Of a stretch of DNA of 64,000 nt, positions 1 through 52,095 are shown in pieces (position 1 is the first letter of the stretch; the number at the start of each line of letters is the position of its first letter). The DNA is from Bacilli bacterium (GTDB lineage: Bacteria > Bacillota_I > Bacilli_A > RF39 > UBA660): the NCBI GenBank assembly GCA_017442305.1, contig JAFRZY010000006.1, positions 41,538-105,537 on the forward strand. Direction: 5' to 3'. Both the position numbers and the translations under genes were made by a program. The notes beneath the pieces are model-generated. The model ran no database searches and was not told where the DNA came from. It saw nothing but the letters and a program-made list of their open reading frames with translations.

Positions 1-903
1 ATAAATAAAATTACTAACATCATGAAAGACATTATAACTTGGATAGCGTAACTAGAAAATACTACCATATTACTAAATATTTCAATTTTATCTAACATAG
101 CAGCTTCATTAATTAAATAAGTACCAACCCAGTAAATGGCTAGTGATACTGAAGACATTATTGTCGACATTACTGGACTCATTATAGCCATTGCTTTTTG
201 AGTAAAAAGATTTGTTTCGGTAAGTTCACTATTAGCTTTTTCGAAACGGGCATTTTGATATTCTTCTGCGTTGTACGCTCTTACTACTCTAATCCCAGTT
301 AAATTTTCTCTTGTAATTCTATTTAGATTATCAGTTAATGTTTGAATAATTTTAAACTTTGGTAAGACAACTATAATTAATATTGTAATTAAAATTAAAA
401 CTATTACTACTCCTACCGCTGTAATAATCGAAAATTCTATTCCTTTATTCGCTATTTTACTAAGGGCTATTATAGCCATTATAGGTGCTTTTATAAGCAT
501 TTGAATACCCATAACTATAAACATTCTAACTTGTCTAATATCATTAGTTGTTCTGGTAATCAAACTACTTGTAGAAAAGCTTTTTATTTCTGCTGCACTA
601 AATTCTCCTACTTTATTAAAAATACTTTTACGCAAAGTTTTAGCATAAGAAGAACCAATATGAGCCGCTAAATATCCAACAACTACTGCTGTAGCTAAAG
701 AACCCAAAGCACATAATAGCATAAATATACCTTCTTTTAAAATGTCAGACATCAGACTGCCTTCAGTTTGAACTAAAACAGTTATTTCAGACATATAATC
801 AGGTATTTTTAATTCTAGCCAGACATTTAAAACAATAAACACTATACTAAATAAAAAAAACAATACATCTTTTTTTGTTAATTTTTTTGCTAATTTAAAC
901 ATA
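1..903 (-). CDS. ABC transporter permease/ATPase, N-terminal transmembrane domain (partial; continues beyond window start)
   Basis: Absent from the ORF track because truncated. Manual translation of the minus strand from ATG at 901-903 (GGAGGG RBS just upstream) gives MFKLAKKLTKKDVLFFLFSIVFIV...GTYLINEAAMLDKIEIF, with several hydrophobic helices typical of an ABC exporter TMD. No stop before coordinate 1. Confidence 0.55.
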
Positions 904-1042
904 TTACCCTCCTATAAATTTTATTAAATTAATTATTTATCTATTCTTTACATCATTTTAAGTATAATTTATTTTCCCGAAGCAGTCAATCTAGCTAATA
1001 TTTATTTACATAATTAAATTTAAATATTGGGGTATCCTAAAA

Positions 1043-2509
1043 ATGGTGATAAATATGAAAAATAAAAGTATATGGCTTGATATTAAACAAAAAAATATAT
1101 GTAGAAGTTTAGATAAAGATATTGAAGTCGATGTTTTAATAATTGGTGGTGGTATAACTGGAATTAGTGCTGCCTATCAACTACAAAATAAAAATCTAAA
1201 AGTATGTTTAGTGGAACAAAATGAAATTGCATCGGGAGTTACTAGTAAAACAACCGGTAAGATATCTTATATTCAAGAAAATATATATTCTAAAATTTCT
1301 AAATACCATGGAATAGAAAAAGCTAAGTTGTATTTGAAATCTCAACTTTGGGCAACTGAAGAAATCAAAAAAATCATTAAAGAAAATAACATTGATTGTA
1401 ATTTAGAAAAAGTAAGATCATATGTTATTAATAATAATTCAGAAAAATACAAAGAAGAACTAACTATTTTAAAAAATATAGGAATTCATTTAAAAGAAAG
1501 TAAAACACTACCAAATAACGAAACTGTAACTAATGCTTTTTATGTAGAAGATACTTATGTATTTCATCCACTTAAGTATCTATATGCTTTAAAGAACGTA
1601 TGCCTAGATAACAATATTTTAATTTTTGAAAATACTAAAATAATTTCAATAAGGAAAGAAAAAGTTTTTTTGTGTAGAACTAGTAATGCCACTATTAAAG
1701 CCAAATATGTTGTTTTAGCACTACATTATCCCTATTTTTTATTTCCATTTATAATGCCTATAAAATCATATATAGAGCAATCTTATATCAAAGCAACACT
1801 AACTAATCAAAACCTTAATTTTAGTAGTATTACAATTACTAACCCAGTTAGTTCATTACGATATCACGAGGATAAAGATAAAATATATGAAATAAGTTTG
1901 GCAAATTCTCATATTACTTGTCTAAAAAATAATGATAAAAATAATTTTTCGGAATTAATAAACCAAAGCAAAAAAACTCCTATTTATATATGGAGTAATA
2001 ACGATATTATGACTAATGACGCAATTCCTTTTATCGGATCACTTAATAAAGAAAATAATCTATTAATTGGAACCGGTTATAATACTTGGGGAATGACTAA
2101 CGGCGTTTTAGCAGGAAAAATACTTTCGGATATTATTTTAAAAAAAGAAAATCAATTTATTAACTTATTTAATCCATTAAGAAAAATGAATATAGGTAAA
2201 ATTCTAAATTTCCCAATAATTGTTGGAAGTAACTGCTACTCTTTTCTTAAATCAAAATTAAAAAAACAAAAAAATTGGTATTCTGATAATGTTAGGTTCG
2301 AAAGTAGAGACGGAAAAAACATAGCAATCTATACTGATGAAAATAAAAAAGAACATATTGTTTACAACGTATGTCCTCACTTAAAATGCAGTTTGATTTT
2401 TAACGAATTAGAACGTACATGGGATTGTCCTTGTCACGGTTCTAGATTCGACATTGACGGTAATGTAATTGAAGGCCCAAGTAACTATAATATAACTTAT
2501 AAAGAATAA
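1043..2509 (+). CDS. FAD-dependent oxidoreductase with C-terminal Rieske [2Fe-2S] domain (YhfW-like)
   Basis: N-terminal dinucleotide fold DVLIIGGGITGISAAY. C-terminal Rieske motifs CPHLKC...CPCHGSRFD. Confidence 0.75.
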   Translation: MVINMKNKSIWLDIKQKNICRSLDKDIEVDVLIIGGGITGISAAYQLQNKNLKVCLVEQNEIASGVTSKTTGKISYIQENIYSKISKYHGIEKAKLYLKSQLWATEEIKKIIKENNIDCNLEKVRSYVINNNSEKYKEELTILKNIGIHLKESKTLPNNETVTNAFYVEDTYVFHPLKYLYALKNVCLDNNILIFENTKIISIRKEKVFLCRTSNATIKAKYVVLALHYPYFLFPFIMPIKSYIEQSYIKATLTNQNLNFSSITITNPVSSLRYHEDKDKIYEISLANSHITCLKNNDKNNFSELINQSKKTPIYIWSNNDIMTNDAIPFIGSLNKENNLLIGTGYNTWGMTNGVLAGKILSDIILKKENQFINLFNPLRKMNIGKILNFPIIVGSNCYSFLKSKLKKQKNWYSDNVRFESRDGKNIAIYTDENKKEHIVYNVCPHLKCSLIFNELERTWDCPCHGSRFDIDGNVIEGPSNYNITYKE

Positions 2510-2517
2510 CTTTACAG

Positions 2518-2847
2518 TTATTCTTTTTCTTGTACAGATTCTAAATATATTTTTTTTGTAAAGGCACCTCGTTTTTCAGCTTTCTTTTTGGCTATTTGTA
2601 AAATCGTTTCAATATTAACAGCTTCTATTTTCGCTAAAGCTTTCATTACTTCTATTAAATCTGCTAATTCTTCTAAACGATCAGTTCCAGAGGCAGAAAT
2701 GACTTCTAAACATTCTTCTTGTAACTTTTTTTCTAGTTCTTTTTTATATTCAACATCATCTAAAATTCTTACTATTGGTTCTTCACCATTATTTTTTATT
2801 ATTTCCGGTATTTTATCTCTTACCAATTTACCATATTTATTTGACAT
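2518..2847 (-). CDS. small all-alpha NTP pyrophosphohydrolase (MazG/HisE-like)
   Basis: 109 aa, helical and acid-rich (EEL..E..KALAK.E). Pattern resembles small MazG-type house-cleaning pyrophosphatases. Weak call. Confidence 0.4.
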   Translation of the reverse strand: MSNKYGKLVRDKIPEIIKNNGEEPIVRILDDVEYKKELEKKLQEECLEVISASGTDRLEELADLIEVMKALAKIEAVNIETILQIAKKKAEKRGAFTKKIYLESVQEKE

Positions 2848-2855
2848 AAGCTCTC

Positions 2856-3188
2856 CTATTCTTTAGGCAAATCAATATTAGAAATTGCCCCTAAATCATA
2901 TGTTTTATATCCTAAGTTTTCTAATATATCGCTTGCTATTTTACTGCGATTTCCACTTTTACAATAAACAAATATTAGTTTTTCTTTGTCTAGATCAACA
3001 TCTTCATCTATTTCATCAAACGGAATATTTATAGCCCCTACTAAATGTAAAGATTCATATTCAGCTGGAGTTCTTACATCTACTATTATATGATCATTTT
3101 CATGCATTAACTTATTTAAATCAGGCTCTTCTATTTTTGTACATCCGACTAAAATAAAAATAATTAATATTAACAATATTTTTTTCAT
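2856..3188 (-). CDS. rhodanese-domain lipoprotein
   Basis: Signal peptide with lipobox LVGC. Rhodanese active-site loop YCKSGNRS. Confidence 0.75.
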   Translation of the reverse strand: MKKILLILIIFILVGCTKIEEPDLNKLMHENDHIIVDVRTPAEYESLHLVGAINIPFDEIDEDVDLDKEKLIFVYCKSGNRSKIASDILENLGYKTYDLGAISNIDLPKE

Positions 3189-3242
3189 AGCATCACCTAA
3201 TATGATTATAACACAAAAAATGGATTTAATTTAAATCCATTT

Positions 3243-3761
3243 TTAATATCCTTTTGAACCTTCTAAGGATTCATCATTTTCTATATATTCACTTACAAAA
3301 ATATGACGATATTTTTCTTTTGAATCTCTAATATAAATATCTTTGATTCCTGCATTTATAATCATTCTTTTGCATAAAGCACAAGGATTTGAGTTTTCAA
3401 CATAACTACCATCATTATGATTTTTACCACACAAGAATAATGTAGAATCAATCATTTTATTACGCTCAGCACTTATTATAGCATTTTGTTCAGCATGAAC
3501 ACTACGACATAGTTCATAACGTTCGCCTTTAGGAACATTTAATTTTTCTCTAATACAGGAATCTAGTTCACAACAATTTTTTCTACCTCTAGGAGCACCA
3601 GCATAACCAGTAGAAATTATTTCGTCATTTTTAACAATAACTGCACCATAATTTCTTCTTATACATGTTGAACGTTCTAGAGCAACTTCTGCCATATCTA
3701 AATAATAATTAATCTTATCAATTCTTTTCATTACTACCTCACTACTTTTTCTTAAATCCAT
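3243..3761 (-). CDS. dCMP deaminase (ComEB-like cytidine/deoxycytidylate deaminase)
   Basis: Zinc-binding motifs HAEQNAI and PCALCKRMIINAGI. Confidence 0.8.
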   Translation of the reverse strand: MDLRKSSEVVMKRIDKINYYLDMAEVALERSTCIRRNYGAVIVKNDEIISTGYAGAPRGRKNCCELDSCIREKLNVPKGERYELCRSVHAEQNAIISAERNKMIDSTLFLCGKNHNDGSYVENSNPCALCKRMIINAGIKDIYIRDSKEKYRHIFVSEYIENDESLEGSKGY

Positions 3762-3784
3762 TATATCACAAAAATTTTATTATT

Positions 3785-4669
3785 TTAATGATGATGATGT
3801 TTTATTGAACCCATCTTTGGCGGTTTACAATCTTTTTCTAAACATTCTTCTCCAGTTAGCTCATATTCAATGGTTGTATGAAAAACACCGTGTTCACTAA
3901 GCTCTTGTTTTACTGTTTCTTTTAATTTTTTAGAAAGTTTATTTACAACAATGTGCATAGTTGCATAGTTATTAACACCATCAATTGTCCATATATGAAT
4001 ATGATGAATATCTTTTATACCTTTAATAGCTAATAAATGTTTTTTTAAATCACTAATGCTTATTCCATCGGGAATTTTTTCTAAGAAAATATCGACAACA
4101 TTCTTTAAGTTTTTTAAAGCATTAATTAAAATAAAAATTGCCACCCCAATCGAAAGAAGGGAATCAATAATTTTAATATCGGTAAAACGCATTATTATAG
4201 CACCCACTAAAACAATCGCCCAATTTAAAACATCTTCTAGCATATGCAAATTTACAGATTTTTGATTTAAAGAATCTCCATCTTTTGTGTAATAAGATGC
4301 TAATAAGTTTACTATTATTCCCACTATTGCTAAGATAATCATCCCATTATAATTTATTGGAATTGGAAAAAATAATCTTTTAACTGCGTTAATTATAACT
4401 AAAATAGACCCTACTATTAAAATGCTTGTAGTAATAACACTACCAATTATTGAATATCTTACATAGCCATAAGTATATATATCATCCGGTTTCTTTTTGC
4501 TTATTCTTTCTAAAACAAAAGAAATAAAAATGCTTAAACAATCCCCTAAATCATGAATTGCATCAGATAATATCGCTACACTGTTAGTTATTGCTCCACC
4601 TATAAACTCAAAAATTGAAAACAATAAATTTAAAATAAACGCTATTAATATATTTTTTTCTGATTTCAT
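3785..4669 (-). CDS. cation diffusion facilitator (CDF) family metal efflux transporter
   Basis: Six TM helices, cytoplasmic C-terminal domain, His-rich tail (HHHH). CDF signature region SDAIHDLGDCLSIFISF. Confidence 0.85.
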   Translation of the reverse strand: MKSEKNILIAFILNLLFSIFEFIGGAITNSVAILSDAIHDLGDCLSIFISFVLERISKKKPDDIYTYGYVRYSIIGSVITTSILIVGSILVIINAVKRLFFPIPINYNGMIILAIVGIIVNLLASYYTKDGDSLNQKSVNLHMLEDVLNWAIVLVGAIIMRFTDIKIIDSLLSIGVAIFILINALKNLKNVVDIFLEKIPDGISISDLKKHLLAIKGIKDIHHIHIWTIDGVNNYATMHIVVNKLSKKLKETVKQELSEHGVFHTTIEYELTGEECLEKDCKPPKMGSIKHHHH

Positions 4670-4679
4670 AAATACTCCT

Positions 4680-5672
4680 TTATCTTGTTATATTATCTTT
4701 TTTATTTAATTCACGCTCATAAACAGTTTTTAAAAAGTCTACTATATTACTATTGCTTAAATAATCGGTATCTATTTCATCAAAAATTGCACTAGAATTA
4801 TTAAGTCTTCTAATAGCTAAAAACAAATCTTTTATTACTTCTAAATTAGGATAGATATTTTCTAACAACTTTATTTTAGCAATATTATTTTGAGCTTTAG
4901 CTTGTATATATATTGTAGTGATATAAACTAATTTTTTATATAGTTCAAATTTATTTTCGCCACTTAATTTATACGTTTCTAATAATAATCCTTTTAGTTC
5001 TTCGTCATTTTTTATTTCGATTTCCTGTTCATTAATCATAACAACGTAATGACAATCATCAGGATTTTCTCCTTTAAAAACGAATTTAATATTATCTTCA
5101 TAATATTCTCGAAGTAAGAAAATCATACTTACTATATCTTTATTTTTTGGTAAAGATTTAACCTCAGCATAAAACGTATATTTTTGATTAATTAATTCTT
5201 TTTCTTCATCCGTATTTGCTTCACTTAATTCTTTTAAATAAGTCATCATGATTAAATATATACGATTATTACCACCCATAATATAACATTTGCCATCTGA
5301 ATCGCGATTTAATTCAATTGGTGTATCATGCGTTGCGTAATTAGGTGATTGATTTTTTTGTTTTAGAGTTTCACTATAATAAGAAGGATTTTGATAAAAC
5401 ATCCGAACATTTTCATCTCCCCGCTTACTTTTTATAAATGACTCTAAAAAAGTTAAATCTTCGTATGTAGGATGTGACGTTCCAACAATATCTTTTAAAC
5501 AAAATGGTAATATAAAAGCTTGTGTATAAACACTTGAATATAAGAAATCTTTTTCCTCTTTGGTAAGTTCAAAAGCATAAGACTTATTTACTTTTGCAAA
5601 TTCTTTAGGTAAATTTTCTAAATCTATTCCTACATGATTTAAAAATTTTAATTTTGTTTCACTTATTTCCAT
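4680..5672 (-). CDS. hypothetical protein (330 aa), co-operonic with the DUF3841-like gene
   Basis: Long ORF with a 15-nt gap to the upstream gene. No confident family. Weak DGxxR-like GGNNR segment. Confidence 0.5.
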   Translation of the reverse strand: MEISETKLKFLNHVGIDLENLPKEFAKVNKSYAFELTKEEKDFLYSSVYTQAFILPFCLKDIVGTSHPTYEDLTFLESFIKSKRGDENVRMFYQNPSYYSETLKQKNQSPNYATHDTPIELNRDSDGKCYIMGGNNRIYLIMMTYLKELSEANTDEEKELINQKYTFYAEVKSLPKNKDIVSMIFLLREYYEDNIKFVFKGENPDDCHYVVMINEQEIEIKNDEELKGLLLETYKLSGENKFELYKKLVYITTIYIQAKAQNNIAKIKLLENIYPNLEVIKDLFLAIRRLNNSSAIFDEIDTDYLSNSNIVDFLKTVYERELNKKDNITR

Positions 5673-5687
5673 GTTTTAAAACTCCCA

Positions 5688-6359
5688 TTATAAATGTTGA
5701 TAATAATCTTCAATCCAATTAAACCTTTCGCCATTACTTCTTATATAATTATATGATCCATAGGTATACCCATCTTCTTTTAAGAATTCAATTTTTTCTA
5801 TGTCTTCTAAGTTTATACGCCAGATACATCCCTGTAAAATATCTCCATTATTTGTAATACATTTATCAAAACTTTTTCGTATTTCTTTACAAACCTCTAA
5901 AAATTCATTATCTGTACGATGATTTTCATATTTGTCTTTTCGTACATATGCTTTTAAATCATCTGAGGTAATATTATATTTAATCAATTTTTTGGCAAAT
6001 TCATTTTTATCTTTTAGATTATTAGGTATATAAGTATTGTTTAATATAAAAGAAAATAATCTATAATCGGTAATAAATACTTCTTTAACATCTTTATTAA
6101 AAGTAATTTTCACATCAAATCCCACTACTTTATTTCCCTTATGTTTTGGTGGGCAATTACCTTTTTTGCATTTTACCCAACACCACACAGGATATTTTGC
6201 ATTAGAAAAATTTTTTATTTGTTGATTCATTTTTTCTATAATCCAATCATAAGCATATCCGGATTTTTTTAAATTAATAAAATCTGGGTTACATTCTAGA
6301 TAACCTTTATACATTAAATTTTTTAATGCATCCATAGATTGAAAGGTAACTAATTTCAT
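5688..6359 (-). CDS. DUF3841-like hypothetical protein
   Basis: N-terminus MKLVTFQS..., ~220 aa with Cys/Trp-rich core. Resembles the DUF3841 family by pattern memory only. Confidence 0.45.
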   Translation of the reverse strand: MKLVTFQSMDALKNLMYKGYLECNPDFINLKKSGYAYDWIIEKMNQQIKNFSNAKYPVWCWVKCKKGNCPPKHKGNKVVGFDVKITFNKDVKEVFITDYRLFSFILNNTYIPNNLKDKNEFAKKLIKYNITSDDLKAYVRKDKYENHRTDNEFLEVCKEIRKSFDKCITNNGDILQGCIWRINLEDIEKIEFLKEDGYTYGSYNYIRSNGERFNWIEDYYQHL

Positions 6360-6594: not shown

Positions 6595-6909
6595 TTAATC
6601 TAATTCTTTTTTTGACTTATTCATTTTAGTTAAGGCTTGATTTATTTTTTGTTCTTCAGCTTCTTCTAAAGAATACCAACCATTATTAAACGCTAACTCA
6701 TAAGCTTCTCTAGCCTTATTTTTTGTCTCATTAAAAATTTTAAACACCTCTTTAAATAAGTATTTATTACTCATCTCATCAATTGCTATAGAATAATTAT
6801 TACTAACATTTTTTAATGTTAATAAAACATCATTTAAAATATCTTTATCATTCATTTCTTTAGTTGATGGTACTTCTTTCATTTTACATTCTATTTTTTT
6901 ATTATTCAT
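6595..6909 (-). CDS. spore coat protein F-like (Coat_F domain)
   Basis: Pattern D.L...L...K.....Y..A..E..N..L...F..........A...Y......GWY, typical of the CotF/YraF family. Confidence 0.45.
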   Translation of the reverse strand: MNNKKIECKMKEVPSTKEMNDKDILNDVLLTLKNVSNNYSIAIDEMSNKYLFKEVFKIFNETKNKAREAYELAFNNGWYSLEEAEEQKINQALTKMNKSKKELD

Positions 6910-8280: not shown

Positions 8281-9354
8281 TTATTTTAAATAAGAATCTA
8301 ATGGTTTTACACGATATTTTGGATCATCCATTTGACTAGTAGGAATAAATCCTGGTTTAGCATTTATTACATCAGGAATTCTATTTACAATATCAGCACA
8401 TGTAAGTTCTACTGTACAAGGTCTATCTACTACGACGCTTGTATCTGGTTCTCCATAAACTGTCCATTCGTTTTTATCAAATACATCCGGCGCATATACT
8501 TTTCCAATACACTCTGCTTCTAAAATTATTCCTTCTTTTGTCTCCGCTTTAACTACAGCGCTCATACCAATTGCCAATCCAGCTTTAATATCCATTTGTA
8601 AAGTTTCTGAATGTAAATCCTCTTCATAAGTAATTGGAACACATTTTTGACTTATTGATTCAATTGTTAAATTTAATTTATCAGCTAACCATCCTACTGT
8701 ATTCCACATATATGATGGTAAAAATTCACGATTATTAATTAAATTATTTCTTTCTTCTGTACTAATATTATCAGCAGCAGCAACTTCCCTTTCGAATTCT
8801 TCTAAAGTTAAACCTGCGCCATGAGCTTTGGCAAGAGCAATACCATAGTCTTCTACATTATAAGAAGAACTTCCCTTTATTTTAGTTATACGATGAGTAC
8901 TTCCTGCTAAAACTGTGATTAAATTACCCCAGAAAATATCTTGATAACCACAACCAGTTATTGTACAGTTATTTGCTTTAGCAAGTAAATCTAATTCTTT
9001 GTGTAGCGTTGGATTACTATTACTTGAGAAGAATGCTTCTTCGCATGTTGTAATAGCATTTACTCCGTTACTTGCACATACTCTTAAAACATCTTCAATG
9101 TCATTTAATAAACTCATTGTTGTAACAATTGCGATGTCTGGTTTAGTATTTTCTAAAACTGTATTTAGATTCTCTACTAAATCAATTTTTACTCCTTTAT
9201 TATCGCCACCCATAACGTAAGCGATATCTTTTCCAATTACTTCTGGGTTAATATCAACTGCCCCTACTATTTCAGCCCCCTTTTCGTAAACATAACGCAT
9301 AGTATATTTACTCATTTTTCCACAACCAATTTGCACTACTTTAATCTTTGTCAT
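8281..9354 (-). CDS. NAD(P)-binding dehydrogenase with DapB-N-like Rossmann fold (amine dehydrogenase / 2,4-diaminopentanoate dehydrogenase-like)
   Basis: N-terminal [14 protein letters not shown] Rossmann motif; ~350 aa architecture like the Ord/Kdd amine dehydrogenase family. Overlaps the upstream AAA gene by 14 nt. Confidence 0.4.
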
Positions 9355-10270
9355 TTAAATCAACTCCTTCATTTTTTATTATGTCTGCAAATTCAATTTT
9401 AAATCTTTCAATTTCTTTTCTTTTAGCATCTTCATATATATTCTTAGCATTACATATAGCTTTATAAAAATGTTTTAATGTTACTGTTTTACTATTGTCA
9501 TATAATGCATAAGTAAACGCATTTGCAACTATTGTAAGGCATATATCTGGATAACGACTAGCTATTTCGTATACTCTTTTATATTCATCAGTCATTTCTA
9601 CAATAAAAGCCATGATCTTTTCTGCTATAAATTCCGTATATCCTAACTTGACCCCAATTTGTTTTTCGAGTTTCGGAATCGTTCCCATTAATATTTTGAC
9701 AACAGTTGGTTTATTAGCTTCTAGCACTTCTATTTTTTGGAATCTTCGTAGAAACGCTCTATCCCTTAAAATATATTGTTCATATTCTTCAGTAGTAGTA
9801 GCTCCAATCATTTTGATTGTTCCTCTATCTAAACCTGCTTTTAACATATTAGCAAAGTCCATTCCACCACTTCTATTTACTAACAAGTGTGTCTCATCTA
9901 TAAAAAGAATCGTTTTATTCTTAGTAGCTAATTCTTTAACTAGTAAATCAACTTTACTATCTACTTGTCCTTCACTTACGGCTTGCCCCAATAAACTAGT
10001 TATATTAAGTTTGATGATTTCCCAATCTTTCAGGGCATCCGGTACTAAATTGTTTTTTATGCGATACGCTAGTCCTTCAACAATGGCAGTTTTACCTATA
10101 CCAGGTTTACCAACTAAAAGAGCACTTTTTTCTGGAGTTAAAAGAGTCAATATAGCTTGTTTGATTTCATCATCACGAGCTATAGCAGGATCTGTAATGT
10201 ATTCCTTAATTGTTAAGTTTTCACCATATCTTTCTAACATACTAATTCTTTCATTATCCATAAGTATCAC
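9341..10270 (-). CDS. standalone AAA+ ATPase resembling the Clp/Hsp100 D1 module
   Basis: LERYGENLT...DP.IARDDEI entry motif; Walker A GKPGIGKT; Walker B ILFIDETH; sensor-1 GATT; Arg finger RRFQ. No Clp N-domain or D2. Pore-loop KYRGE replaced by VSEGQ. Confidence 0.7.
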
Positions 10271-10359
10271 ATCCTATAATAAAATTATAGCATTTTACAA
10301 AATAATTTTAAATAAAATTGCTATAAGTTGACAATTTATACATACTAAAAGACAGTAAT

Positions 10360-11070
10360 TTAAATACTGTCTTTTAATTGTTTTTTGATTTTTTTTACTT
10401 TCTTTCGTAATTCTTTTTCCGCATTTTTAATTTTAACTTGCAAATCAGGGAAAGCATTATGCAAACGTTTAACAAGAATTGATTTTTCTAATAATATTTC
10501 ATGCACTTTTTCACTTATTTGTTCAGTACTATCTTTAGCAACTGTTATTATGGTATTTTTGAAAGTGTATATGATTTGAAAGGAGATAATATTATCAATT
10601 ATAAAAATTAAAAATAAAATAATTGTGATTAAATATAAATTATTAAAAGATATTTTATTAATTAAAGATAACAAATAAGGATTAACGATATAAATAATAA
10701 CTATGCCTAAGATACCAAACGCTAACATGTATTCTAGGCACACACGACCGTTAATGTTAACTTTTCGGTCAGAATAGTCCCACCAACGAGCTTTAAATAG
10801 TTTTTCCATAATATAACTAGTTGCATATTCTAATCCTGAACATATAATTAAAGACATAAAGAACAATATAATAGGATTTTTAGAAAAGTTTTGTAAACAA
10901 ATTGTTATAAGAATGCACCCTATTCCATAAATTGGACAATAGGGACCTATTAAAAATCCACGGTTTATAAATCTTTTATTTCTAATTAATCCAATACATA
11001 CTTCCATTAGCCAGCCTATAAAAGAATATAGCAAAAATAACAAGAAATAAACACAAAACAAATTCATCAT
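10360..11070 (-). CDS. polytopic membrane protein, CmpB/DUF1113-like
   Basis: FLLYSFIGWLMEV and GPYCPIYG motifs characteristic of PF06541-type membrane proteins. Confidence 0.4.
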   Translation of the reverse strand: MMNLFCVYFLLFLLYSFIGWLMEVCIGLIRNKRFINRGFLIGPYCPIYGIGCILITICLQNFSKNPIILFFMSLIICSGLEYATSYIMEKLFKARWWDYSDRKVNINGRVCLEYMLAFGILGIVIIYIVNPYLLSLINKISFNNLYLITIILFLIFIIDNIISFQIIYTFKNTIITVAKDSTEQISEKVHEILLEKSILVKRLHNAFPDLQVKIKNAEKELRKKVKKIKKQLKDSI

Positions 11071-11163
11071 ATCACCTACATAGAGTAATTATAGACTCTA
11101 CTAATAGTGTTGTCAATTTAAGAATATTTTATCACCTCTTTCCTTTTTCAATATATCTTATGC

Positions 11164-11198
11164 AAAAAAAAGACAAGCTATCATTATGCTTGTCTATA
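11164..11198 (-). terminator. rho-independent terminator of the TasA-like gene
   Basis: Hairpin AGACAAGC...GCTTGTCT followed by a T-tract on the minus strand. Confidence 0.6.
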
Positions 11199-11200
11199 AT

Positions 11201-13090
11201 TTATTCCATTACTATTTCGTAAGGTGTATTTGTATCTATTCGACCATCTCCAGTAAATTTAACGTCTGCTTTTAAGTTAATTACAGGACGAACTTTACGA
11301 CTATCCCCGATTGTTGCATCATAATTTGAAATAGAACCATTTGCAGAAACATAATATACATATAACCCATCATCAAAATCACCTACATCAAGAAAGTAGC
11401 TAGGAGTGGATGTCCAAAACGCTTCGTTACTATATAAATAATGTGTTGCATTGGAAACTACTCCGCCAGCCATTAGTACTTCATCAGCAGTTAATAATCC
11501 TATAGGTTTATCTAATAGACCATTCCCTTTCCCTTCACTTTTTGTATATCTATCGCTCTTATTTGTACATATTAATTTTGGGGCTCTGTTTCGATAAATT
11601 CTAGTATATGGATTAAAGTATACTTCACTCCATCCACTTGAACTAGGATCGGTTATTTCATTGTAATGTTCATCCCAATATCGCCCGATTGATATTTCAC
11701 GGTCATTACAGAATATTCCATCTGCTATATATTTGCCATATGTTTCCTCCAAATTATCTTCGTACCATTTATCTACTACTCCTTTGATTATACTATCCAC
11801 TTGTATTCCGTTACCATCATCATATGTATATCCGACATATTTAGAATTATAATATCCAGTGTTATAAATCGCATCTGCGATTGTCGCTGTATGTGCTACA
11901 CCATTTGCTACAGGCGCTGTTCCATCATAAACAAGCCGGATTGTACCATCGCCATTAATTCTTACAATTCGCCAATACATTGGCATTTCCTCGACATATG
12001 TTACATCGTTTACCGTACTTTCTGATGCATAACTCCCAAATTTTACGTAATTATTGGTTGGCGCTCCTCTAAAATAATATGATATGCCTAAGTCGTCTTG
12101 GGCTTTATATAAACCAGCATCACTTGCAGTCGTGCCTTCACTAAATCCATTGCTTCCTTTTATAGTTTTTGCTGTTACATAATTCCCACTTGTTCCAAAA
12201 TTTGTTACTTCATATATAGTTTGACTTTCATATGTTGAACTGACGTTTTTTATTGTGTATTTTCCACATGTTTTCGTTCCATTTCTACATTCTTCCAATG
12301 TTGCTTGTGTTAGTGTCCCTGATAATGTATAATATCCGATTTCTTTATCAAATTTATATGTTGTTCCATACCAATAACTGTTTGATGTTCCGACACTTGT
12401 TGATGCTGCTGTTATCGTTGAGGCATCTCCTTCTGTCCATTCTGCACTTAAACTTGTTATGGCATCTGCTCCTCCATAGTTAGAAAGTATATCATATGCT
12501 AATGTGCCTTCTTTATATGGATTAAATATTCCCTGACCTATTGTTACACTGATTTTACTTCTAAATGTTTTATTTTGTTCACTGATTGGGGCATTTGCAT
12601 CTATCCAGATGCGTAATTCATATGTTACAGCATCATCTTCTGTTTCGTCTGATGCGCCTGCTAATGTGCCATATGCAAGTTTATTTGATTCATATGCTTC
12701 ACTTATTGTTGGCTCTGCATTTCCTTCAGCAGTTAGTAGTTTTATTTCTTCGTTTAACGCTACTTTAATTGCGCTTGCTTTAATTGCGTTAGTACTATCT
12801 CCTATACTTTCCAAATTTACTTGATAATCAACAGATGTACTACAGTTATTTGTTACTGTAAATTCGTATGGCGTTAGTTTCATTCCTTCGGTATCACTTA
12901 ACGGAAATTGATCAATTAATTCAATATCATTCTTTTCACCACTTAATGATATATCTAAACATCCTGATGAGATTACATTTTGATTTGTTTGAGTCTTTGT
13001 TACTAACCAGTATGCATATGTTACTCCGATTATTACTAGGAGTACTGCTACTATACTTATTACAGTGATTACTGTTTTTTTATTCTTCAT
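11201..13090 (-). CDS. large secreted protein with TasA/camelysin-type N-terminal signal region and a conserved C-terminal domain of unknown function (paralog of 62925-64000)
   Basis: N-terminus KK-hydrophobic-GVTYAYW...SSGCLDISLS parallels the B. subtilis TasA GGGTWAAF...ASGTLDLS SipW-type signal region. C-terminal ~300 aa (YYFRG...WRIVRINGDGTIRLVYDGT...GIFCNDREI...LICTNKSDRYT...GLLTADE...RPVINLK...PYEIV) is shared with the ORF at the window end. Confidence 0.6.
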   Translation of the reverse strand: MKNKKTVITVISIVAVLLVIIGVTYAYWLVTKTQTNQNVISSGCLDISLSGEKNDIELIDQFPLSDTEGMKLTPYEFTVTNNCSTSVDYQVNLESIGDSTNAIKASAIKVALNEEIKLLTAEGNAEPTISEAYESNKLAYGTLAGASDETEDDAVTYELRIWIDANAPISEQNKTFRSKISVTIGQGIFNPYKEGTLAYDILSNYGGADAITSLSAEWTEGDASTITAASTSVGTSNSYWYGTTYKFDKEIGYYTLSGTLTQATLEECRNGTKTCGKYTIKNVSSTYESQTIYEVTNFGTSGNYVTAKTIKGSNGFSEGTTASDAGLYKAQDDLGISYYFRGAPTNNYVKFGSYASESTVNDVTYVEEMPMYWRIVRINGDGTIRLVYDGTAPVANGVAHTATIADAIYNTGYYNSKYVGYTYDDGNGIQVDSIIKGVVDKWYEDNLEETYGKYIADGIFCNDREISIGRYWDEHYNEITDPSSSGWSEVYFNPYTRIYRNRAPKLICTNKSDRYTKSEGKGNGLLDKPIGLLTADEVLMAGGVVSNATHYLYSNEAFWTSTPSYFLDVGDFDDGLYVYYVSANGSISNYDATIGDSRKVRPVINLKADVKFTGDGRIDTNTPYEIVME

Positions 13091-13149
13091 ACCTATCCGT
13101 CCTTCGTAAAATATATCATAGTTCTATTGTCATATTTTGTTACATTTTA

Positions 13150-13178
13150 ATAATATCAATTTAACATATCACTGTCAA
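13150..13178 (-). promoter_or_regulatory. sigma-A-type promoter P1 of the TasA-like gene (TTGACA-17-TATTAT)
   Basis: Minus-strand -35 TTGACA (plus 13173-13178), 17-nt spacer, -10 TATTAT (plus 13150-13155). Leader ~55 nt to ATG at 13090. Confidence 0.5.
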
Positions 13179-13186
13179 TGTGATAT
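13166..13186. promoter_or_regulatory. palindromic candidate operator ATATCAC-N7-GTGATAT overlapping the P1 -35
   Basis: Perfect 7-bp inverted repeat arms at 13166-13172 and 13180-13186. The spacer contains the -35 TTGACA. Confidence 0.4.
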
Positions 13187-13219
13187 CATCATTATGTCGT
13201 CTATCTATTTTACAAGGTA

Positions 13220-13247
13220 AGTATAATATACCCCCCCCGGCTGTCAA
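13220..13247 (-). promoter_or_regulatory. candidate promoter P2 with G8 homopolymer in the spacer (TTGACA-16-TATACT)
   Basis: Minus-strand -35 TTGACA (plus 13242-13247). Spacer GCC-G8-TATAT contains a C8/G8 run (13231-13238) that is exceptional in this AT-rich DNA. -10 TATACT (plus 13220-13225). Confidence 0.4.
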
Positions 13248-13258
13248 CTGTGGATAAC

Positions 13259-13283
13259 AAAAAAAGAACTATTTCTAGTTCTT
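13259..13283 (-). terminator. rho-independent terminator downstream of tRNA-Asn
   Basis: Hairpin AGAACTAG-AAA-TAGTTCT plus T5 on the minus strand. Confidence 0.6.
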
Positions 13284-13294
13284 TAGTTTTCTAA

Positions 13295-13370
13295 TGGCGC
13301 CTGATGCAGGACTCGAACCTGCGACCTAACGGTTAACAGTCGTGCGCTCTACCGACTGAGCTAATCAGGC
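13295..13370 (-). tRNA. tRNA-Asn (anticodon GTT), CCA encoded
   Basis: Acceptor GCCTGAT/ATCAGGC; D-arm GCTC-AGTCGGTA-GAGC; anticodon loop CTGTTAA; T-arm GCAGGTTCGAGTCCTGC. Anticodon stem imperfect (CACGA/CCGTT). Very similar to Firmicute tRNA-Asn. Upstream minus-strand promoter TTGACA-18-TATACT at ~13391-13420. Confidence 0.7.
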
Positions 13371-13454
13371 AAATTTCTGTGTACTCATAAAGTATATAAT
13401 AAATCATATTATTTTGTCAACTAAAATTTACCAAAAATAGTAAGAAAAAGTATC

Positions 13455-25323: not shown

Positions 25324-25674
25324 TTAGTCCTTTGGTTTAAAGATAAAACTTAATATTGCTGAAAATACAACAGCACTTACTATGGCAGCTGAAGCTTTAG
25401 TTAAAAGATGCGTAAAACACCCAATTAATCCGGATTCATTTAATCCTATTAAACCACCTTGATAAAGCATATGGCCAAAATTTGAAATTAAAACTGTTGC
25501 ACCTGCCCCTGCAAAATCTATTAATTTTTCATAAAGCCCCAAAAATGATAGTATTGCTCCTAAAACTGTGAACAAACTTGTAACATGACCCGGAGTTAGA
25601 TTGGTGTTATCAAGTATCATTTGGGCTATAGCACATACTAATCCCGAGAAAATAAATGCCGAAAAAAATATCAT
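25324..25674 (-). CDS. spoVAEB: stage V sporulation protein AEB
   Basis: 116 aa; collinear with B. subtilis SpoVAEB (MIF..AF..G..C.I.Q...D...LTP.H..S...V.GA.L...GLYE.L...AGAG). Confidence 0.8.
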   Translation of the reverse strand: MIFFSAFIFSGLVCAIAQMILDNTNLTPGHVTSLFTVLGAILSFLGLYEKLIDFAGAGATVLISNFGHMLYQGGLIGLNESGLIGCFTHLLTKASAAIVSAVVFSAILSFIFKPKD

Positions 25675-26648
25675 TATATGACCTCCAAACTAACAGCGTG
25701 AGCAATTGCTGGAATTGTATTTTTTTGATTAATTAATGATACTGTATGCAAAGAACCGGTCCCAATTATTAAGATTTTTTTATACTTATTGGTTTTTAAG
25801 ATTCTATTAAAAAGTACTAATGGCAAAGCAACTGGACCACTAGCTCCAGCATATGTTTCTTGGTTATCTAAATAAAGTTCGCTTCCAGCATCAATATGTT
25901 TTTTTAACTTCAAATCATAACTACGTTTAATATATTCTCTAAATATTTTTGTACCAATTTCTCCTAAATCCCCCGTTAATATTAAATCATAATAATCACT
26001 ACTACGTTTTAAATCTAATAAATGGCGTGCCAACGTTTCTGCAGCTGCTGGAGCCATAACCGCTCCCATGTTATTTGCATCTTTCATTCCCATATCTATC
26101 GGAATACCTATTGTTGCTGAATCAACTCGAATTTTACTTTTTTCATTAGTTAATAAAGCTCCTACACAACCTGTAGCAGTAAATGTTGCTGTATGAGGCT
26201 TAGGAGCACCATATTCAACCGGAAAACGAAATTGTTTTTCGCTATTTAGATTATGACTACTTGTTACTGCAATTATATTATTTGCTTGTTTACTATTTAT
26301 CAAATTTGCTCCTACAGAAACACTTTCTACAAATGTAGCACAAGCACTATATAGTCCTAAAAAAGGGATTTGATAATATTTTGCACTATAACTAGAAATA
26401 GCAATTTGATTATATAATTCCCCGCCAATTAAATAATCTATATCTCCATCTAACAATTTATTTTGTAATAGCAAATTATCAATTACTATTCGTTGCATTT
26501 TAATTTCTGCTTGTTCAAAAGTCTTTTCTCTATAATAATAATCATCCATAGTTAAATCAAACTTTTTTATTTGCCCATTTTTTTCAAGCGGACCTGCAAT
26601 ACTAAAACTATTTTTTATATAAACATTATCAAATTTTAAACTAGACAT
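25674..26648 (-). CDS. spoVAD: stage V sporulation protein AD (thiolase-like)
   Basis: ~325 aa thiolase-fold protein in spoVAC-AD-AEB order. Overlaps neighbours by 1 and 13 nt. Confidence 0.85.
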   Translation of the reverse strand: MSSLKFDNVYIKNSFSIAGPLEKNGQIKKFDLTMDDYYYREKTFEQAEIKMQRIVIDNLLLQNKLLDGDIDYLIGGELYNQIAISSYSAKYYQIPFLGLYSACATFVESVSVGANLINSKQANNIIAVTSSHNLNSEKQFRFPVEYGAPKPHTATFTATGCVGALLTNEKSKIRVDSATIGIPIDMGMKDANNMGAVMAPAAAETLARHLLDLKRSSDYYDLILTGDLGEIGTKIFREYIKRSYDLKLKKHIDAGSELYLDNQETYAGASGPVALPLVLFNRILKTNKYKKILIIGTGSLHTVSLINQKNTIPAIAHAVSLEVI

Positions 26649-27079
26649 TCTATAACCATCCTTATCATAAGTAACAGAAAAGCGCTTAATATACCATAAA
26701 GAATAACACTTCCTGCAAGTTTGAAAAAGTTTGCTCCAAGTCCTGTAATTAAACCATCTTTTTTATAATCAAGAGCACTACTACTAATAGAATGAGCAAA
26801 TCCGGTAGTAGGAATTATTAATCCTGCTTTAAATTTTGTTACTAAATTATCAAAAAAACCCAAGGAAGTTAAAAAACATCCAATAAATATTAAACTAATA
26901 CAGAGCCAAATAAAAGCTTCAGTTCTTGATACTCCGCAAAAATTCATAAGTATATAGATTTCTAATTCTCCTAAAACACCAACAATACCGCCACTTAGAA
27001 ATGCTAGCAAGGTATTTTTTACTTTGTTTTCTTTGGGAGTTAAAGACTTTACTAATTTTTTATATTCATCTTTATTCAT
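26636..27079 (-). CDS. spoVAC: stage V sporulation protein AC
   Basis: Collinear with B. subtilis SpoVAC (KKLVKS..PK..V.N.L.AFL.GG..., IPTTGFAHSISSSALDYKKDGLITGLGANFFKLAG). Confidence 0.85.
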   Translation of the reverse strand: MNKDEYKKLVKSLTPKENKVKNTLLAFLSGGIVGVLGELEIYILMNFCGVSRTEAFIWLCISLIFIGCFLTSLGFFDNLVTKFKAGLIIPTTGFAHSISSSALDYKKDGLITGLGANFFKLAGSVILYGILSAFLLLMIRMVIECLV

Positions 27080-27095
27080 ATTATTCCTCCACCTT

Positions 27096-27124
27096 TATTA
27101 TGTAAAAGCTATTAATTTTTATGC
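27096..27124 (-). promoter_or_regulatory. forespore sigma-G/F-type promoter upstream of spoVAC (GCATA-17-CATAATA)
   Basis: Minus-strand -35 GCATA (plus 27120-27124), 17-nt spacer, -10 CATAATA (plus 27096-27102). Matches the B. subtilis sigma-G consensus GHATR-17/18-CATnnTA. RBS AAGGTGGAGG follows. Confidence 0.55.
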
Positions 27125-27141
27125 AAATAAAAAATGCATCA
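27103..27141 (-). terminator. rho-independent terminator after the sigF-like gene
   Basis: Imperfect 12-bp stem TGCGTCAATACA/TGTAGTGATGCA plus T6 on the minus strand, immediately after the sigma stop codon. Confidence 0.5.
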
Positions 27142-27789
27142 CTACATAGTCATGTATTGACGCATTTTTTCTATTCCCTTTTTCTCATAACGCGAAACCA
27201 TTACTTGAGTCATATTTAAAGTTCTTGCTACCTCGCTTTGAGTCATATCTTTATAATATCTCGCTTTTATGATTTCTCTTTCTCTATCATCAAGTCTATC
27301 TAAAGAATCAAATATATCTATTCTTTCTTCCATAGATATATTTTCTCTACATCCCACTGTTTCATAATAACTTCTTTCATTATCCGGTTGTTCATCTAAT
27401 GATTTAACAGCTTCCATGCAGCTAGTTGCTTGATTAATAATTTCTTCATCCAATTCAAGATATAATGCTAACTCTTGATTAGTTGGAATTTTTCCATATT
27501 TTTGAGCTAAATCATAACGAGTTCTTTCGGCTAATTTTCTAACCTTTAAAAGATATTGATTTATTTTTAATGGATTATTATTACTTACTAATGTATACAT
27601 TGCTCCATAAATATATGGATAAGCATAAGTGCTAAATTTAGTAGTTCCATCACTTTTATAATTTTTATAAGCTTGAAGCAAAGCTCCTACTCCAACTTGA
27701 AATAAATCCTCAAAATCAGCATTATAAAATTTTTTACAAACATTTAATATTAATCCCTTATTCGCTTCAATTATTTCTTCCGGTGTCAT
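27142..27789 (-). CDS. sporulation sigma factor, SigF/SigG-family (sigma-70 regions 2-4; short N-terminus)
   Basis: DLFQVGVGALLQAYKNY...FSTYAYPYIYG (region 2) and REREIIKARYYKDMTQSEVARTLNMTQVMVSRYEKK (region 4), near-identical in pattern to B. subtilis SigF/SigG. Only 215 aa. Confidence 0.85.
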   Translation of the reverse strand: MTPEEIIEANKGLILNVCKKFYNADFEDLFQVGVGALLQAYKNYKSDGTTKFSTYAYPYIYGAMYTLVSNNNPLKINQYLLKVRKLAERTRYDLAQKYGKIPTNQELALYLELDEEIINQATSCMEAVKSLDEQPDNERSYYETVGCRENISMEERIDIFDSLDRLDDREREIIKARYYKDMTQSEVARTLNMTQVMVSRYEKKGIEKMRQYMTM

Positions 27790-27798
27790 ATATGCCTC

Positions 27799-28131
27799 CT
27801 AGACTTCAATTAATTCTAGCGCTGTTAGTTCATTAGCAGTTTTTTTAATTTTTATTCTTTTCATATTTTTTTCTAACTCTTTTGACACTTCACATAAACA
27901 GATTTTCCCTTTATTAGTACGAATAGCACATTTAGTATTTAAAATTGCATCAAGTCCTGATTCATCAATGCCCTCAAGTAAATACATGTTATATACTAAA
28001 TATTTTATTTTATGTTTTAAAATAACAGGTACTAAGTAATTATTTAATTTATAACTACTACGGCGATTTAATATTCCATCCAATCTTACAAATAAGATAC
28101 CTTTACTATATTCCAAATCCATTTTTAACAT
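27799..28131 (-). CDS. anti-sigma factor antagonist, STAS domain (SpoIIAA-like)
   Basis: STAS pattern with conserved phosphorylatable Ser in DESGLD (cf. SpoIIAA DSSGLG). 9-nt gap to the sigma gene. Confidence 0.75.
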   Translation of the reverse strand: MLKMDLEYSKGILFVRLDGILNRRSSYKLNNYLVPVILKHKIKYLVYNMYLLEGIDESGLDAILNTKCAIRTNKGKICLCEVSKELEKNMKRIKIKKTANELTALELIEV

Positions 28132-51032: not shown

Positions 51033-51590
51033 TTAATATCCTTTTTTCTTATAACGTTCATATAATTCTTTAAAACGATTAAAGTGAACTACTTCTCTTT
51101 GTCTTAACCATAGTAGTGGTCTTAGTACATCTTCATCATTTGTTAAATCAATTAAGTTTTCATATACTGCTCTCGCTTTTTGTTCAGCTGCCATGTCTTC
51201 CATTAAATCTGCTATTGGGTCAGCTGTTACTGCAAAATATGTAGCTGTAAACGGTACACCTGAAGCGTCAGTTGGATATACTCCTTTATTATGATCAGCA
51301 TAATATGAACCTAAACCAGCTTGTTCTAATTCTTTTACAGTTGCATCTTTAGTAAGTTGATGAACCATTGAACAAATCATTTCACAGTGACCTAACTCTT
51401 CAGTTGCAATATCATTAAGTAGAGCTTTACCATATTCATCTGGCATTGTAAACTTTTGAGAGAAGTAACGCATTGCTGCAGCTAGCTCACCATTAGCACC
51501 ACCAAATTGTGTTAATAAATATTTAGCCATTTTTAAATCTTTTTTTCGTATATTAATTGGAAAGTTAGTGTGTTTTACATATTTAAACAT
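51033..51590 (-). CDS. cotJC: spore coat protein CotJC (Mn-catalase family)
   Basis: Collinear with B. subtilis CotJC (QFGGANGELAAAMRY, TEELGHCEMI, PFTATY, PIADLMEDMAAEQKAR). Start chosen at internal Met MFKYV, which has a GGAGG RBS. The track ORF begins 14 codons further upstream. Confidence 0.85.
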   Translation of the reverse strand: MFKYVKHTNFPINIRKKDLKMAKYLLTQFGGANGELAAAMRYFSQKFTMPDEYGKALLNDIATEELGHCEMICSMVHQLTKDATVKELEQAGLGSYYADHNKGVYPTDASGVPFTATYFAVTADPIADLMEDMAAEQKARAVYENLIDLTNDEDVLRPLLWLRQREVVHFNRFKELYERYKKKGY

Positions 51591-52095
51591 ACATTGAACC
51601 TCCTTCGTTATCCCAAGGCCATGGATTTTCAAGCCATTTATATTTGTTTCCTACTTCATCATTAATTGTTAATGGACCATACATCTTGTTAAATTCTTCT
51701 TTTAGTTTTTTCTCTTCCATAATGTACTGTCTTAGAAGTCTAACTCCTTCTTGATCATCAGGATATAAATCCAAATATAAATTTAAATCTGTAATTGCAA
51801 AACATAAAGCCATAATATCGTATAACTTTTTCTCTCTTTCTGTCTTCGGATTTAATGGTAGATAAGTTAAATTTTTATAAGGCTTATATTCATCGCGAAA
51901 CATGTTACCACGCATAAAACCCTCTTTCACTGAAAATAGTTCGTTATTTTCTCTAGGAATGTCATTAAAATTACTGCCGGGAATTTCAAAAAAAGTTAAA
52001 TTAACATCATAATCGTTATTATCAAATAACATATAAAAAATACCTCCTACATTATAGTATGAGGTTTTATAAAGTTGGGTTGTGCTAATACCCAA
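51583..52095 (-). CDS. CotJA-CotJB fusion protein
   Basis: N-terminal half resembles CotJA. C-terminal half carries CotJB motifs LNLYLDLYPDD ... YGPL ... WPW. Stop overlaps the cotJC start (ATGTTTAA). Confidence 0.6.
   Translation of the reverse strand: MGISTTQLYKTSYYNVGGIFYMLFDNNDYDVNLTFFEIPGSNFNDIPRENNELFSVKEGFMRGNMFRDEYKPYKNLTYLPLNPKTEREKKLYDIMALCFAITDLNLYLDLYPDDQEGVRLLRQYIMEEKKLKEEFNKMYGPLTINDEVGNKYKWLENPWPWDNEGGSMYV

Follow-up and report, generated by a model that had tools for sequence, protein, structure and literature searches.

What kind of protein is encoded by the gene at positions 11201..13090 on the minus strand (629 aa plus stop, ATG start, as given by the list of open reading frames, ORFs) of the 64,000-nt stretch of Bacilli bacterium contig JAFRZY010000006.1 (assembly GCA_017442305.1, positions 41,538 to 105,537) that we refer to as the window? 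We call this gene and its product copy 1; a related ORF, copy 2, lies on the same strand at 62925..64000, where it is cut by the window end. The answer that we favour, and consider reasonably probable, is that copy 1 belongs to a large family of dispersed genes for exported, modular surface adhesins of uncultured spore-forming low-GC gut Bacilli, a family that is probably phase-variable.

A preliminary description of the window, made from its sequence, had proposed that the two ORFs encode large paralogous proteins with a common C-terminal domain of about 300 aa. The paralogy is borne out, as BLASTP aligns the two at 54% identity over 314 aa (aa 316-629 of copy 1; E 4e-107), the motifs quoted for the domain are present, and the DNA of the two copies is 68% identical over 728 nt; in copy 2 this domain (the C-domain) occupies approximately 62928-63776. 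The claim of size applies to copy 1 only. Copy 2 is 100% identical over 357 aa to residues 82-438 of P0121, a 438-aa protein from a metagenome-assembled genome (MAG; ‘Bacilli bacterium’ IJN03_01785), and is therefore not large. Judged from P0121, it begins with a K-rich stretch, a transmembrane helix and the sequence GTYAAYKV, followed by a beta domain of ~90 aa, and it lacks the N-terminal module of ~190 aa (the N-module) found in copy 1. A tblastn search for a third copy within the window found none. The surface-protein-like multigene family that had been suspected from these two genes is nevertheless far larger than those two could show. The full copy 1 protein has > 1,000 relatives, all unnamed or ‘hypothetical’, and the C-domain > 1,100; at least 10 family genes occur in MAG IJN03 and seven on one 238-kb contig. 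An exhaustive phmmer search recovered the N-module from 3,544 representative clusters, in every case at the very N-terminus of proteins of 173-1,042 aa, with passengers that include BspA-type leucine-rich repeats (LRR), PARCEL/DUF285, Listeria-Bacteroides repeats, PKD/Ig, ConA-like, beta-helix and DUF6273 domains. The exact copy 1 protein occurs on six ruminant-gut metagenome contigs, and relatives were found in GTDB genomes labelled ‘Mycoplasma sp. CAG:776/956’, in uncultured Bacilli/Tenericutes from human (Hadza), rabbit and Brazilian samples, and in chicken-gut Candidatus genera.

Structures predicted with AlphaFold2 (AF2) from family alignments gave a mean predicted local distance difference test score (pLDDT) of 87 for the N-module plus middle domain and of 95 for the C-domain (predicted template-modelling score, pTM, 0.93), and delimit the modules of copy 1, all on the minus strand. 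The leader (aa 1-26, 13013..13090) consists of MKNKK, a hydrophobic helix of 18-20 residues and a terminal GVTYA. It is followed by a segment, YWLVTKTQTNQNVISSGC (aa 27-44, 12959..13012), that is highly conserved after the putative cleavage site and is a candidate donor strand; AF2 draws a helix through residues 2-31 and gives pLDDT < 50 to residues 29-37 in the monomer model. Next come the beta-sandwich of the N-module (aa 45-190, 12521..12958; pLDDT ~90, strands within 45-183), a swappable middle beta domain (aa 191-325, 12116..12520; pLDDT 95-98 for 229-311) and the compact C-terminal head (aa 326-629, 11204..12115; model range 316-629). Each domain contains one pair of the six cysteines (44/83, 268/275 and 461/508), which fits an extracytoplasmic location, and the first and last of these pairs are invariant. 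Paralogues are 82-93% identical over the first 60 aa, 57-84% over the remaining N-module and 48-62% over the C-domain. Since synonymous codons at the N-terminus differ between paralogues about as much as in the rest of the gene, the N-terminal conservation reflects purifying selection, and gene conversion as its cause was rejected on the same ground. The middle domain is present in P0003 and is swapped or absent in neighbouring paralogues (36 of 135 positions alignable), and the variability of the C-domain clusters in four hypervariable loops (aa 356-365, 466-485, 566-575 and 586-595). Where the preliminary description had suggested diversifying selection, the pattern observed is thus one of exchanged domains, hypervariable loops and a strongly conserved N-terminus.

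The preliminary description had likened the N-terminus to the SipW-processed leader of TasA/CalY. For copy 1 this likeness holds moderately well; for copy 2, which has no N-module, it does not. A profile of diverse N-modules matched a 46-sequence TasA/CalY profile in hhalign with E 1e-4 (probability 46-58%, 59 columns), whereas a reversed TasA profile reached only E 0.64, and four other hydrophobic leader classes together with the copy-2-type (TYAAY) leader gave E 0.05-0.9. The diverse profile was needed: that of the close family (A2) gave a probability of merely 1.9%. The alignment places GVTYA/YW of copy 1 on the TasA cleavage site GGTWA/AF (the mature TasA start was verified against PDB 8aur) and SSGCLDISL on ASGTLDLSA in the same register, and the segment aa 27-44 aligns with TasA donor strand 28-47 (PMC9674648). 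Within the family A26 is invariant and T24, Y25, Y27 and W28 are conserved at ≥ 90%, while Q34, N38 and C44 are invariant or at ≥ 90% even in relatives only 35-45% identical. From these alignments we infer a SipW/TasA-type cleavage after A26. The relative P0457, which has the same N-module plus C-domain architecture (N-module 40% identical, E 1e-27), passes the cut-off of PF12389 (Peptidase_M73, camelysin) with 25.2 versus 22.5 bits over aa 1-100; because copy 1 does not, its own link to that family is transitive only. Other members match the TasA, BsaA and TapA models weakly, with TIGR04090 weakly matched in one member only (E 0.0035). In three distant genomes (L048, L051 and L074) a gene for a SipW/archaeal-type peptidase (88-95 bits against TIGR02228, whose cut-off is 51.85) directly precedes a gene for an N-module plus C-domain protein on the same strand, and L074 has two small TasA-like genes in addition.

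Several results weigh against a TasA-type export module. Copy 1 remains below the cut-offs of PF12389 (14 bits, E 0.045, aa 4-94; cut-off 22.5) and of TIGR04088, the SipW-cognate signal (about 14.2-18 bits; cut-off 19), which it matches only with hydrophobic aa 11-28. The likeness to TasA in profile-profile comparison is confined to the first ~60 residues. Foldseek found nothing in PDB at E ≤ 1e-3 for the model of N-module plus middle domain, the hits being generic beta-sandwiches, including some donor-strand pilins, with TasA outside the top 50; the family profile HMM run against all PDB sequences returned just a spurious antibody match. As had been noted at the outset, the window contains neither sipW nor tapA; nor does a sipW stand beside the family genes of the window's lineage, in which a LepB-type enzyme, encoded beside rplS, is the sole signal peptidase seen.

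The alternative that best survives is that copy 1 is a plain signal-anchored surface protein, with a helix that is never cleaved, an N-module that is a mere stalk, neither SipW dependence nor polymerisation, and a TasA likeness amounting to a short motif. This we regard as possible, if doubtful. Besides the lack of a sipW near family genes in the window lineage and the TasA-free fold search, it can draw on an uncharged stretch of 23-25 residues, which is of membrane-spanning length, on the single AF2 helix, on a TIGR04088 match no better than that of the FliL, TagU and RodZ membrane anchors, and on the fact that cleavage would release a protein that has no C-terminal anchor. However, a simple anchor leaves unexplained why purifying selection has kept residues 24-44, immediately beyond the membrane, extremely conserved, and it does not account for the bridge from P0457 to PF12389 or for the sipW genes adjacent in three genomes; moreover, the controls described above exclude generic hydrophobicity as the source of the TasA match.

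One further locus touches on the N-module. At L090 (8001-9967) an ORF encoding only an N-module (197 aa, P0384) is followed 165 nt on by a leaderless LRR_5 ORF (402 aa), a pair that may represent a family gene that was split or frameshifted, or a different type of switch. Proteins of ~190 aa that consist of the N-module only were considered as ‘major subunits’ but are not relied upon here, the one inspected, at L090, being possibly a split gene.

The promoter region of copy 1 bears on how the family is expressed. The distal of two promoter-like sites (13220..13247, minus strand; sigma-70-like, 11/12 match) comprises TTGACA, a 16-nt spacer and TATACT, and reads TTGACA-GCC-G8-TATAT-TATACT, with the tract of eight Gs on the gene strand (13231..13238) inside the spacer between the -35 and -10 hexamers. 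This tract is the sole G/C homopolymer of six or more in the 64 kb, whose GC content is ~27%. Its length varies. Among five contigs that carry the copy 1 locus, including the window, it is G7 in one, G8 in three and G9 in one, with 200-nt flanks that are otherwise identical; among ten contigs with P0085, a second family gene from another species, it is G7 in two, G8 in five and G9 in three and again is the sole difference, all lengths being those of assembled consensus sequences. In 1.28 Mb of family loci we observed 40 runs of G ≥ 7, as opposed to ~4 expected by chance. Thirty-two of these lie directly upstream of N-module genes and one precedes a gene for a TasA leader plus C-domain, so that 33 of the 36 resolvable runs stand before family genes. 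Counted by gene, 28/93 N-module genes have a tract, compared with 2/924 of the other ORFs (Fisher p 5e-29). In the 28 family genes the tract always falls between -35-like and -10-like hexamers, and across paralogues and species its length ranges from 7 to 11 with the position in the spacer kept. The association and the length polymorphism point to phase variation, for which a layout of this kind, with slipped-strand changes, is classical; on sequence grounds, the poly-G of copy 1 is a candidate slipped-strand phase-variation switch, by which the gene probably turns on and off. A pattern scan of JGI metagenomes for this lineage's poly-G promoter gave no match.

Other observations speak against such a switch, or limit its reach. 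The promoter of copy 2, beyond the window, is homologous but free of poly-G, and none of 24 C-domain-only genes bears a tract. Copy 1 itself has a second promoter-like site nearer its start codon (13150..13178, minus strand; TTGACA, 17 nt, TATTAT plus a TG extension, 11/12 match), and because this site is tract-free the tract may modulate copy 1 rather than switch it. The proximal site belongs to a ‘long’ form of the upstream region (also in L095 and L006_b/c) and is missing from a ‘short’ form (P0003, P0085). Finally, homopolymer lengths taken from assembled contigs could be in part assembly error.

Taken to its end, this last point yields a second alternative, namely that the length differences are artefacts of sequencing or assembly and that the tract is a conserved promoter element (e.g. 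discriminator or UP-like) without switching. The consensus origin of the lengths, the error-proneness of homopolymers, the two P0085 contigs that break at the tract and the tract-free second site of copy 1 can all be cited for it. Breaks of this kind are, however, also what would be expected if tract length were heterogeneous within samples. We consider the artefact unlikely, as nothing but the tract varies within 115-200 nt in 15 contigs, which come from different samples and represent two loci, and as its lengths there are only 7-9; as the paralogues and species vary between 7 and 11 while the spacer position is constant; and as the enrichment is extreme for a genome of 27% GC. Further contigs start (L108, L109) or end (L061, L065, L067, L072) at a poly-G promoter tract or next to one. 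Between the two promoter-like sites of copy 1, and overlapping the proximal -35, lies a mini-ORF of five codons (13195-13178, minus strand; ATGATGATATCACATTGA, encoding MMISH and a stop); the equivalent position of L095 reads ATGATAAAACTACATTGA. It may be a coincidence or a leader peptide.

The genomic setting might suggest a different site of action. Besides cell-wall genes, the window contains spoVAC/AD/AE, sigF, spoIIAA, cotJB/JC, cotF and a spoIIIE-like gene (sporulation genes at 25324-28131, 51033-52095 and 6595-6909), the own-lineage contig L006 has others at 9471-13405, and own-lineage contigs also carry spoIVA and spoVIF, which adjoin P0003. The window organism is thus a walled spore-former, and copy 1 could be a protein of the spore surface (coat or exosporium) rather than a vegetative adhesin, the more so as TasA was first described as spore-coat-associated (PMC9674648). 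We nonetheless think this quite improbable: the promoters look sigma-A-like (TTGACA/TATAAT), the passengers of the N-module are typical vegetative adhesin domains, and proximity is weak evidence because sporulation genes are numerous.

What, then, would such a protein bind with? The preliminary description could assign the C-domain to no described family, a statement that no longer holds. Pfam DUF6273 (PF19789; gathering threshold 23.5 bits) does not match copy 1 and scores 14 bits in copy 2 (profile positions 127-172, the last ~47 residues); the model does match 15 of 101 family members at E ≤ 0.01, with P0217 above the cut-off at 25.2 bits and P0462 aligned over positions 20-171 of 172. A Foldseek search of the C-domain model against BFVD, a database of predicted viral structures, gave 15 matches at E ≤ 1e-3 (probability ~1.0, best E 2.5e-7, TM-score (target) up to 0.59), most of them annotated as DUF6273, with DUF1566 lower down, whereas PDB gave none at E ≤ 1e-3 and only faint C-type lectins. 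DUF6273 domains have a C-type-lectin-like fold and, in gut-phage receptor-binding proteins that are diversified by diversity-generating retroelements (DGRs), form the part that varies and binds the ligand (PMC10743442, PMC11792537). The shared fold, together with the Pfam matches among relatives, therefore makes the C-domain an enlarged, divergent cellular member of the DUF6273/C-type-lectin-like superfamily; this assignment is one of predicted fold.

The C-domain is joined to several kinds of N-terminus, including type IV pilin leaders (KGFTLIELLAV...), ComGG-like leaders, plain membrane anchors and TasA-like leaders, and we read it as a portable adhesive head. The pilin-type prepilin motif occurs in P0117, P0138 and other C-domain relatives; the G/F-T-L-x-E prepilin motif (PF07963) is absent from both window proteins. 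At L092 two pilin-type C-domain carriers lie within a minor-pilin gene cluster. The products of four consecutive genes there (789-5841) are an Ig-repeat protein of 554 aa, a pseudopilin of 198 aa and two C-domain proteins, the first with a ComGG-like leader (390 aa) and the second with a pilin-like one (493 aa). The window lineage also has type IV filament components, as judged from one T2SSE and two T2SSF genes (Tad/type-II-secretion-like) at L005 1-2290, 8-10 kb from a family paralogue, and from a small N_methyl (pilin-like) protein at L006 7002-7463.

That copy 1 is a prophage-derived receptor-binding protein or DGR target, as the DGR-targeted DUF6273 domains of gut phages (PMC10743442, PMC11792537) and the phage origin of the best structural matches might suggest, is barely credible, given that a tblastn search of 50,697 phage records with the C-domain found nothing, that phage genes, a reverse transcriptase and a template repeat are all absent from the window, that the region equivalent to the DGR variable region differs among paralogues by indels and not in an A-to-N pattern, and that family genes sit amid housekeeping genes. 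DGR diversification was itself rejected as a candidate, there being within the window no reverse-transcriptase-like ORF and no repeat of the 3′ end of the gene.

Returning to the modular, probably phase-variable adhesin, we envisage that it would act as follows. The protein would be exported by Sec, its leader being recognised in the manner of TasA and either cleaved at A26 by a SipW-type peptidase encoded elsewhere or retained as a membrane anchor. The N-module would then keep the protein at the cell surface, possibly because the conserved strand at its N-terminus is inserted into a second N-module, in the way known for TasA and BsaA (PMC9674648, PMC11580942), and the lectin-like head would bind a ligand, most likely a glycan. 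Since the middle domain and the loops differ, paralogues would offer different specificities. In the window lineage, each N-module paralogue whose upstream DNA was seen has its own promoter with G7-G9 in the -35/-10 spacer. Slipped-strand changes in length would reset this spacer, to 17 nt with G9, 16 nt with G8 and 15 nt with G7, and could thereby switch or tune single genes, such that a population would display shifting combinations of adhesins.

A bolder version goes further. Here the N-module is a polymerisation unit of the TasA/BsaA type, the near-identical N-terminal strands of 10 or more paralogues are inserted, once the leader is removed, into one another's beta-sandwiches, and the result is a combinatorial phase-variable adhesive fibre in which each subunit has a different head (lectin-like, LRR, PARCEL and others), among which the poly-G tracts choose; the join might be locked by an isopeptide between N38 and K179, with E94 catalysing. 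We offer this as speculation and think it rather unlikely to be right in full. Were it correct, the fibre would be to the TasA world what modular type IV pili are to theirs, and this in a lineage formerly binned as ‘Mycoplasma sp. CAG’, a parallel that we put forward with equal reserve. The fibre-like secretion that the preliminary description had drawn from the TasA-like leader is itself an inference.

How does the family compare with systems already described? With TasA/CalY and SipW of B. subtilis and B. cereus it shares the register of the leader (K-rich, hydrophobic, T-aromatic-A/x-aromatic), the conserved ‘SG-x-LD-[LI]-S’ strand that comes next and the beta-sandwich domain that follows, as well as a relative, P0457, over the Pfam cut-off and a sipW-type gene adjacent in three distant genomes. 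On the other hand, copy 1 itself falls below the cut-offs, the likeness is confined to ~60-100 residues, and the fold search did not recover TasA. Moreover, the N-module bears a C-terminal extension of 440 aa whereas TasA is a single 26-kDa domain, and the family genes are dispersed, stand-alone and multicopy whereas tasA sits in a tapA-sipW-tasA operon.

The BsaA/BsaB/BsaC-SipW system of Clostridium perfringens (PMC11580942) offers another parallel, its proteins being, as on our reading the N-module is, highly divergent relatives of TasA. The strand after the leader is disordered in monomer models there, as it is here (pLDDT < 50 at 29-37), and a conserved N/E/K set has its counterpart in N38, E94 and K179, each at ≥ 90%. 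The Bsa system has been linked functionally to type IV pilus genes, and the C-domain in our family occurs on TasA-type or pilin-type N-termini. Unlike it, the window family has no operon containing sipW or a von Willebrand factor A (vWA) protein.

The head resembles the DUF6273 receptor-binding proteins and DGR targets of phages (‘tentaclins’) in its fold and in its C-terminal motifs (...WT/LRS-P ... VRP-V/A-I/L-N-L), and the most variable loops of the C-domain are located where DGR variable regions map (PMC11792537). It differs in being chromosomal, without a DGR and diversified through paralogy, and in its length of ~300 aa versus 172 profile positions, with a further beta region at the N-terminal end (YYFRG...YWRI-RINGDG), a long insertion and a disulfide that is conserved. 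Streptococcus sanguinis has modular type IV pilins (PilB, which bears a vWA module, and PilC, which bears a lectin module; PMC8179133, PMC9934059) that likewise consist of a filament or anchor module onto which an adhesive module is grafted. P0117, P0138 and P0142 match this plan directly in combining a pilin N-terminus with the C-domain, two such genes lying in a minor-pilin cluster, whereas the window proteins lack the G/FTLxE motif and their carrier is TasA-like.

Phase variation through a homopolymer in the promoter spacer is established for Neisseria meningitidis porA (poly-G) and opc (poly-C) and for the vlp family of Mycoplasma hyorhinis (poly-A). The likeness to these systems lies in a tract between the -35 and -10 of surface-protein genes that is polymorphic in length in otherwise identical sequences and, in the case of vlp, in each member of a multigene family having its own tract. 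Unlike them, some genes of the window family have a second, tract-free promoter-like site. To our knowledge, this type of phase variation is undescribed for this lineage or for TasA-like proteins. In H. pylori, sabA provides another example of phase variation by a promoter homopolymer (PMC2715451, PMC4081817).

Each element thus has a precedent, be it TasA/SipW, DUF6273 lectin-like heads, modular pilins or homopolymer phase variation. What appears new is their combination, i.e. a TasA-type carrier with many adhesin heads, in a dispersed family with promoter-spacer poly-G, in uncultured gut Bacilli and unannotated in Pfam and NCBIfam. The unannotated N-module of ~190 aa, present in > 3,500 clusters, is plausibly a TasA/SipW-type export or assembly module that serves as a general carrier of adhesins. 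On our reading the family would be a large surface-binding repertoire whose members can be switched individually, bringing the contingency logic of mycoplasmas and Neisseria to commensals that form spores and inhabit the guts of ruminants, humans, rabbits and chickens. The DUF6273 fold would gain a cellular, non-phage role; the same head is found on carriers of both the TasA-like and the type IV pilin kind, two filament systems that are unrelated. If fibres are formed, donor-strand assembly of the TasA type would extend from single-domain matrix proteins to modular adhesins. Poly-G tracts also appear to be hotspots for assembly breaks and strain heterogeneity in metagenomes.

The copy 1 gene is a stand-alone unit between a tRNA-Asn gene and a gene for a CmpB-like membrane protein, with sigma-70-like promoter sites and a ribosome-binding site of its own and no operon partners. 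The tRNA-Asn (GTT) gene, directly upstream (13295-13370, minus strand), has its own promoter-like site and a terminator-like hairpin; an Rfam scan of the window found three tRNAs and nothing else. Other paralogues are inserted singly or as loose groups amid housekeeping and sporulation genes. In one such arrangement, Lon_C/PDZ gene - insertion - rplS - lepB (L095-L097, L092), the insertion is an N-module gene in one lineage and a pilin/C-domain cluster in another, which suggests that the gap upstream of rplS-lepB is a recurrent insertion hotspot for these surface-protein genes. Another hotspot of this sort is located next to clpC (copy 2 of the window, and L090).

Upstream of copy 2, ~4 kb past the window end, a 524-aa protein with a C-terminal sortase domain (TLSTC) is encoded at L093 236-1810; it has an unknown N-terminal half and a transmembrane segment. 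An LPXTG-type signal is absent from both window proteins. Lastly, the window encodes at 9341-10270 (minus strand) a 309-aa AAA+ protein whose likeness to ClpA/B/C-type ATPases is confined to their first nucleotide-binding domain, and whose gene overlaps the start of a gene resembling those for diaminopimelate (DAP) dehydrogenase by 14 nt.

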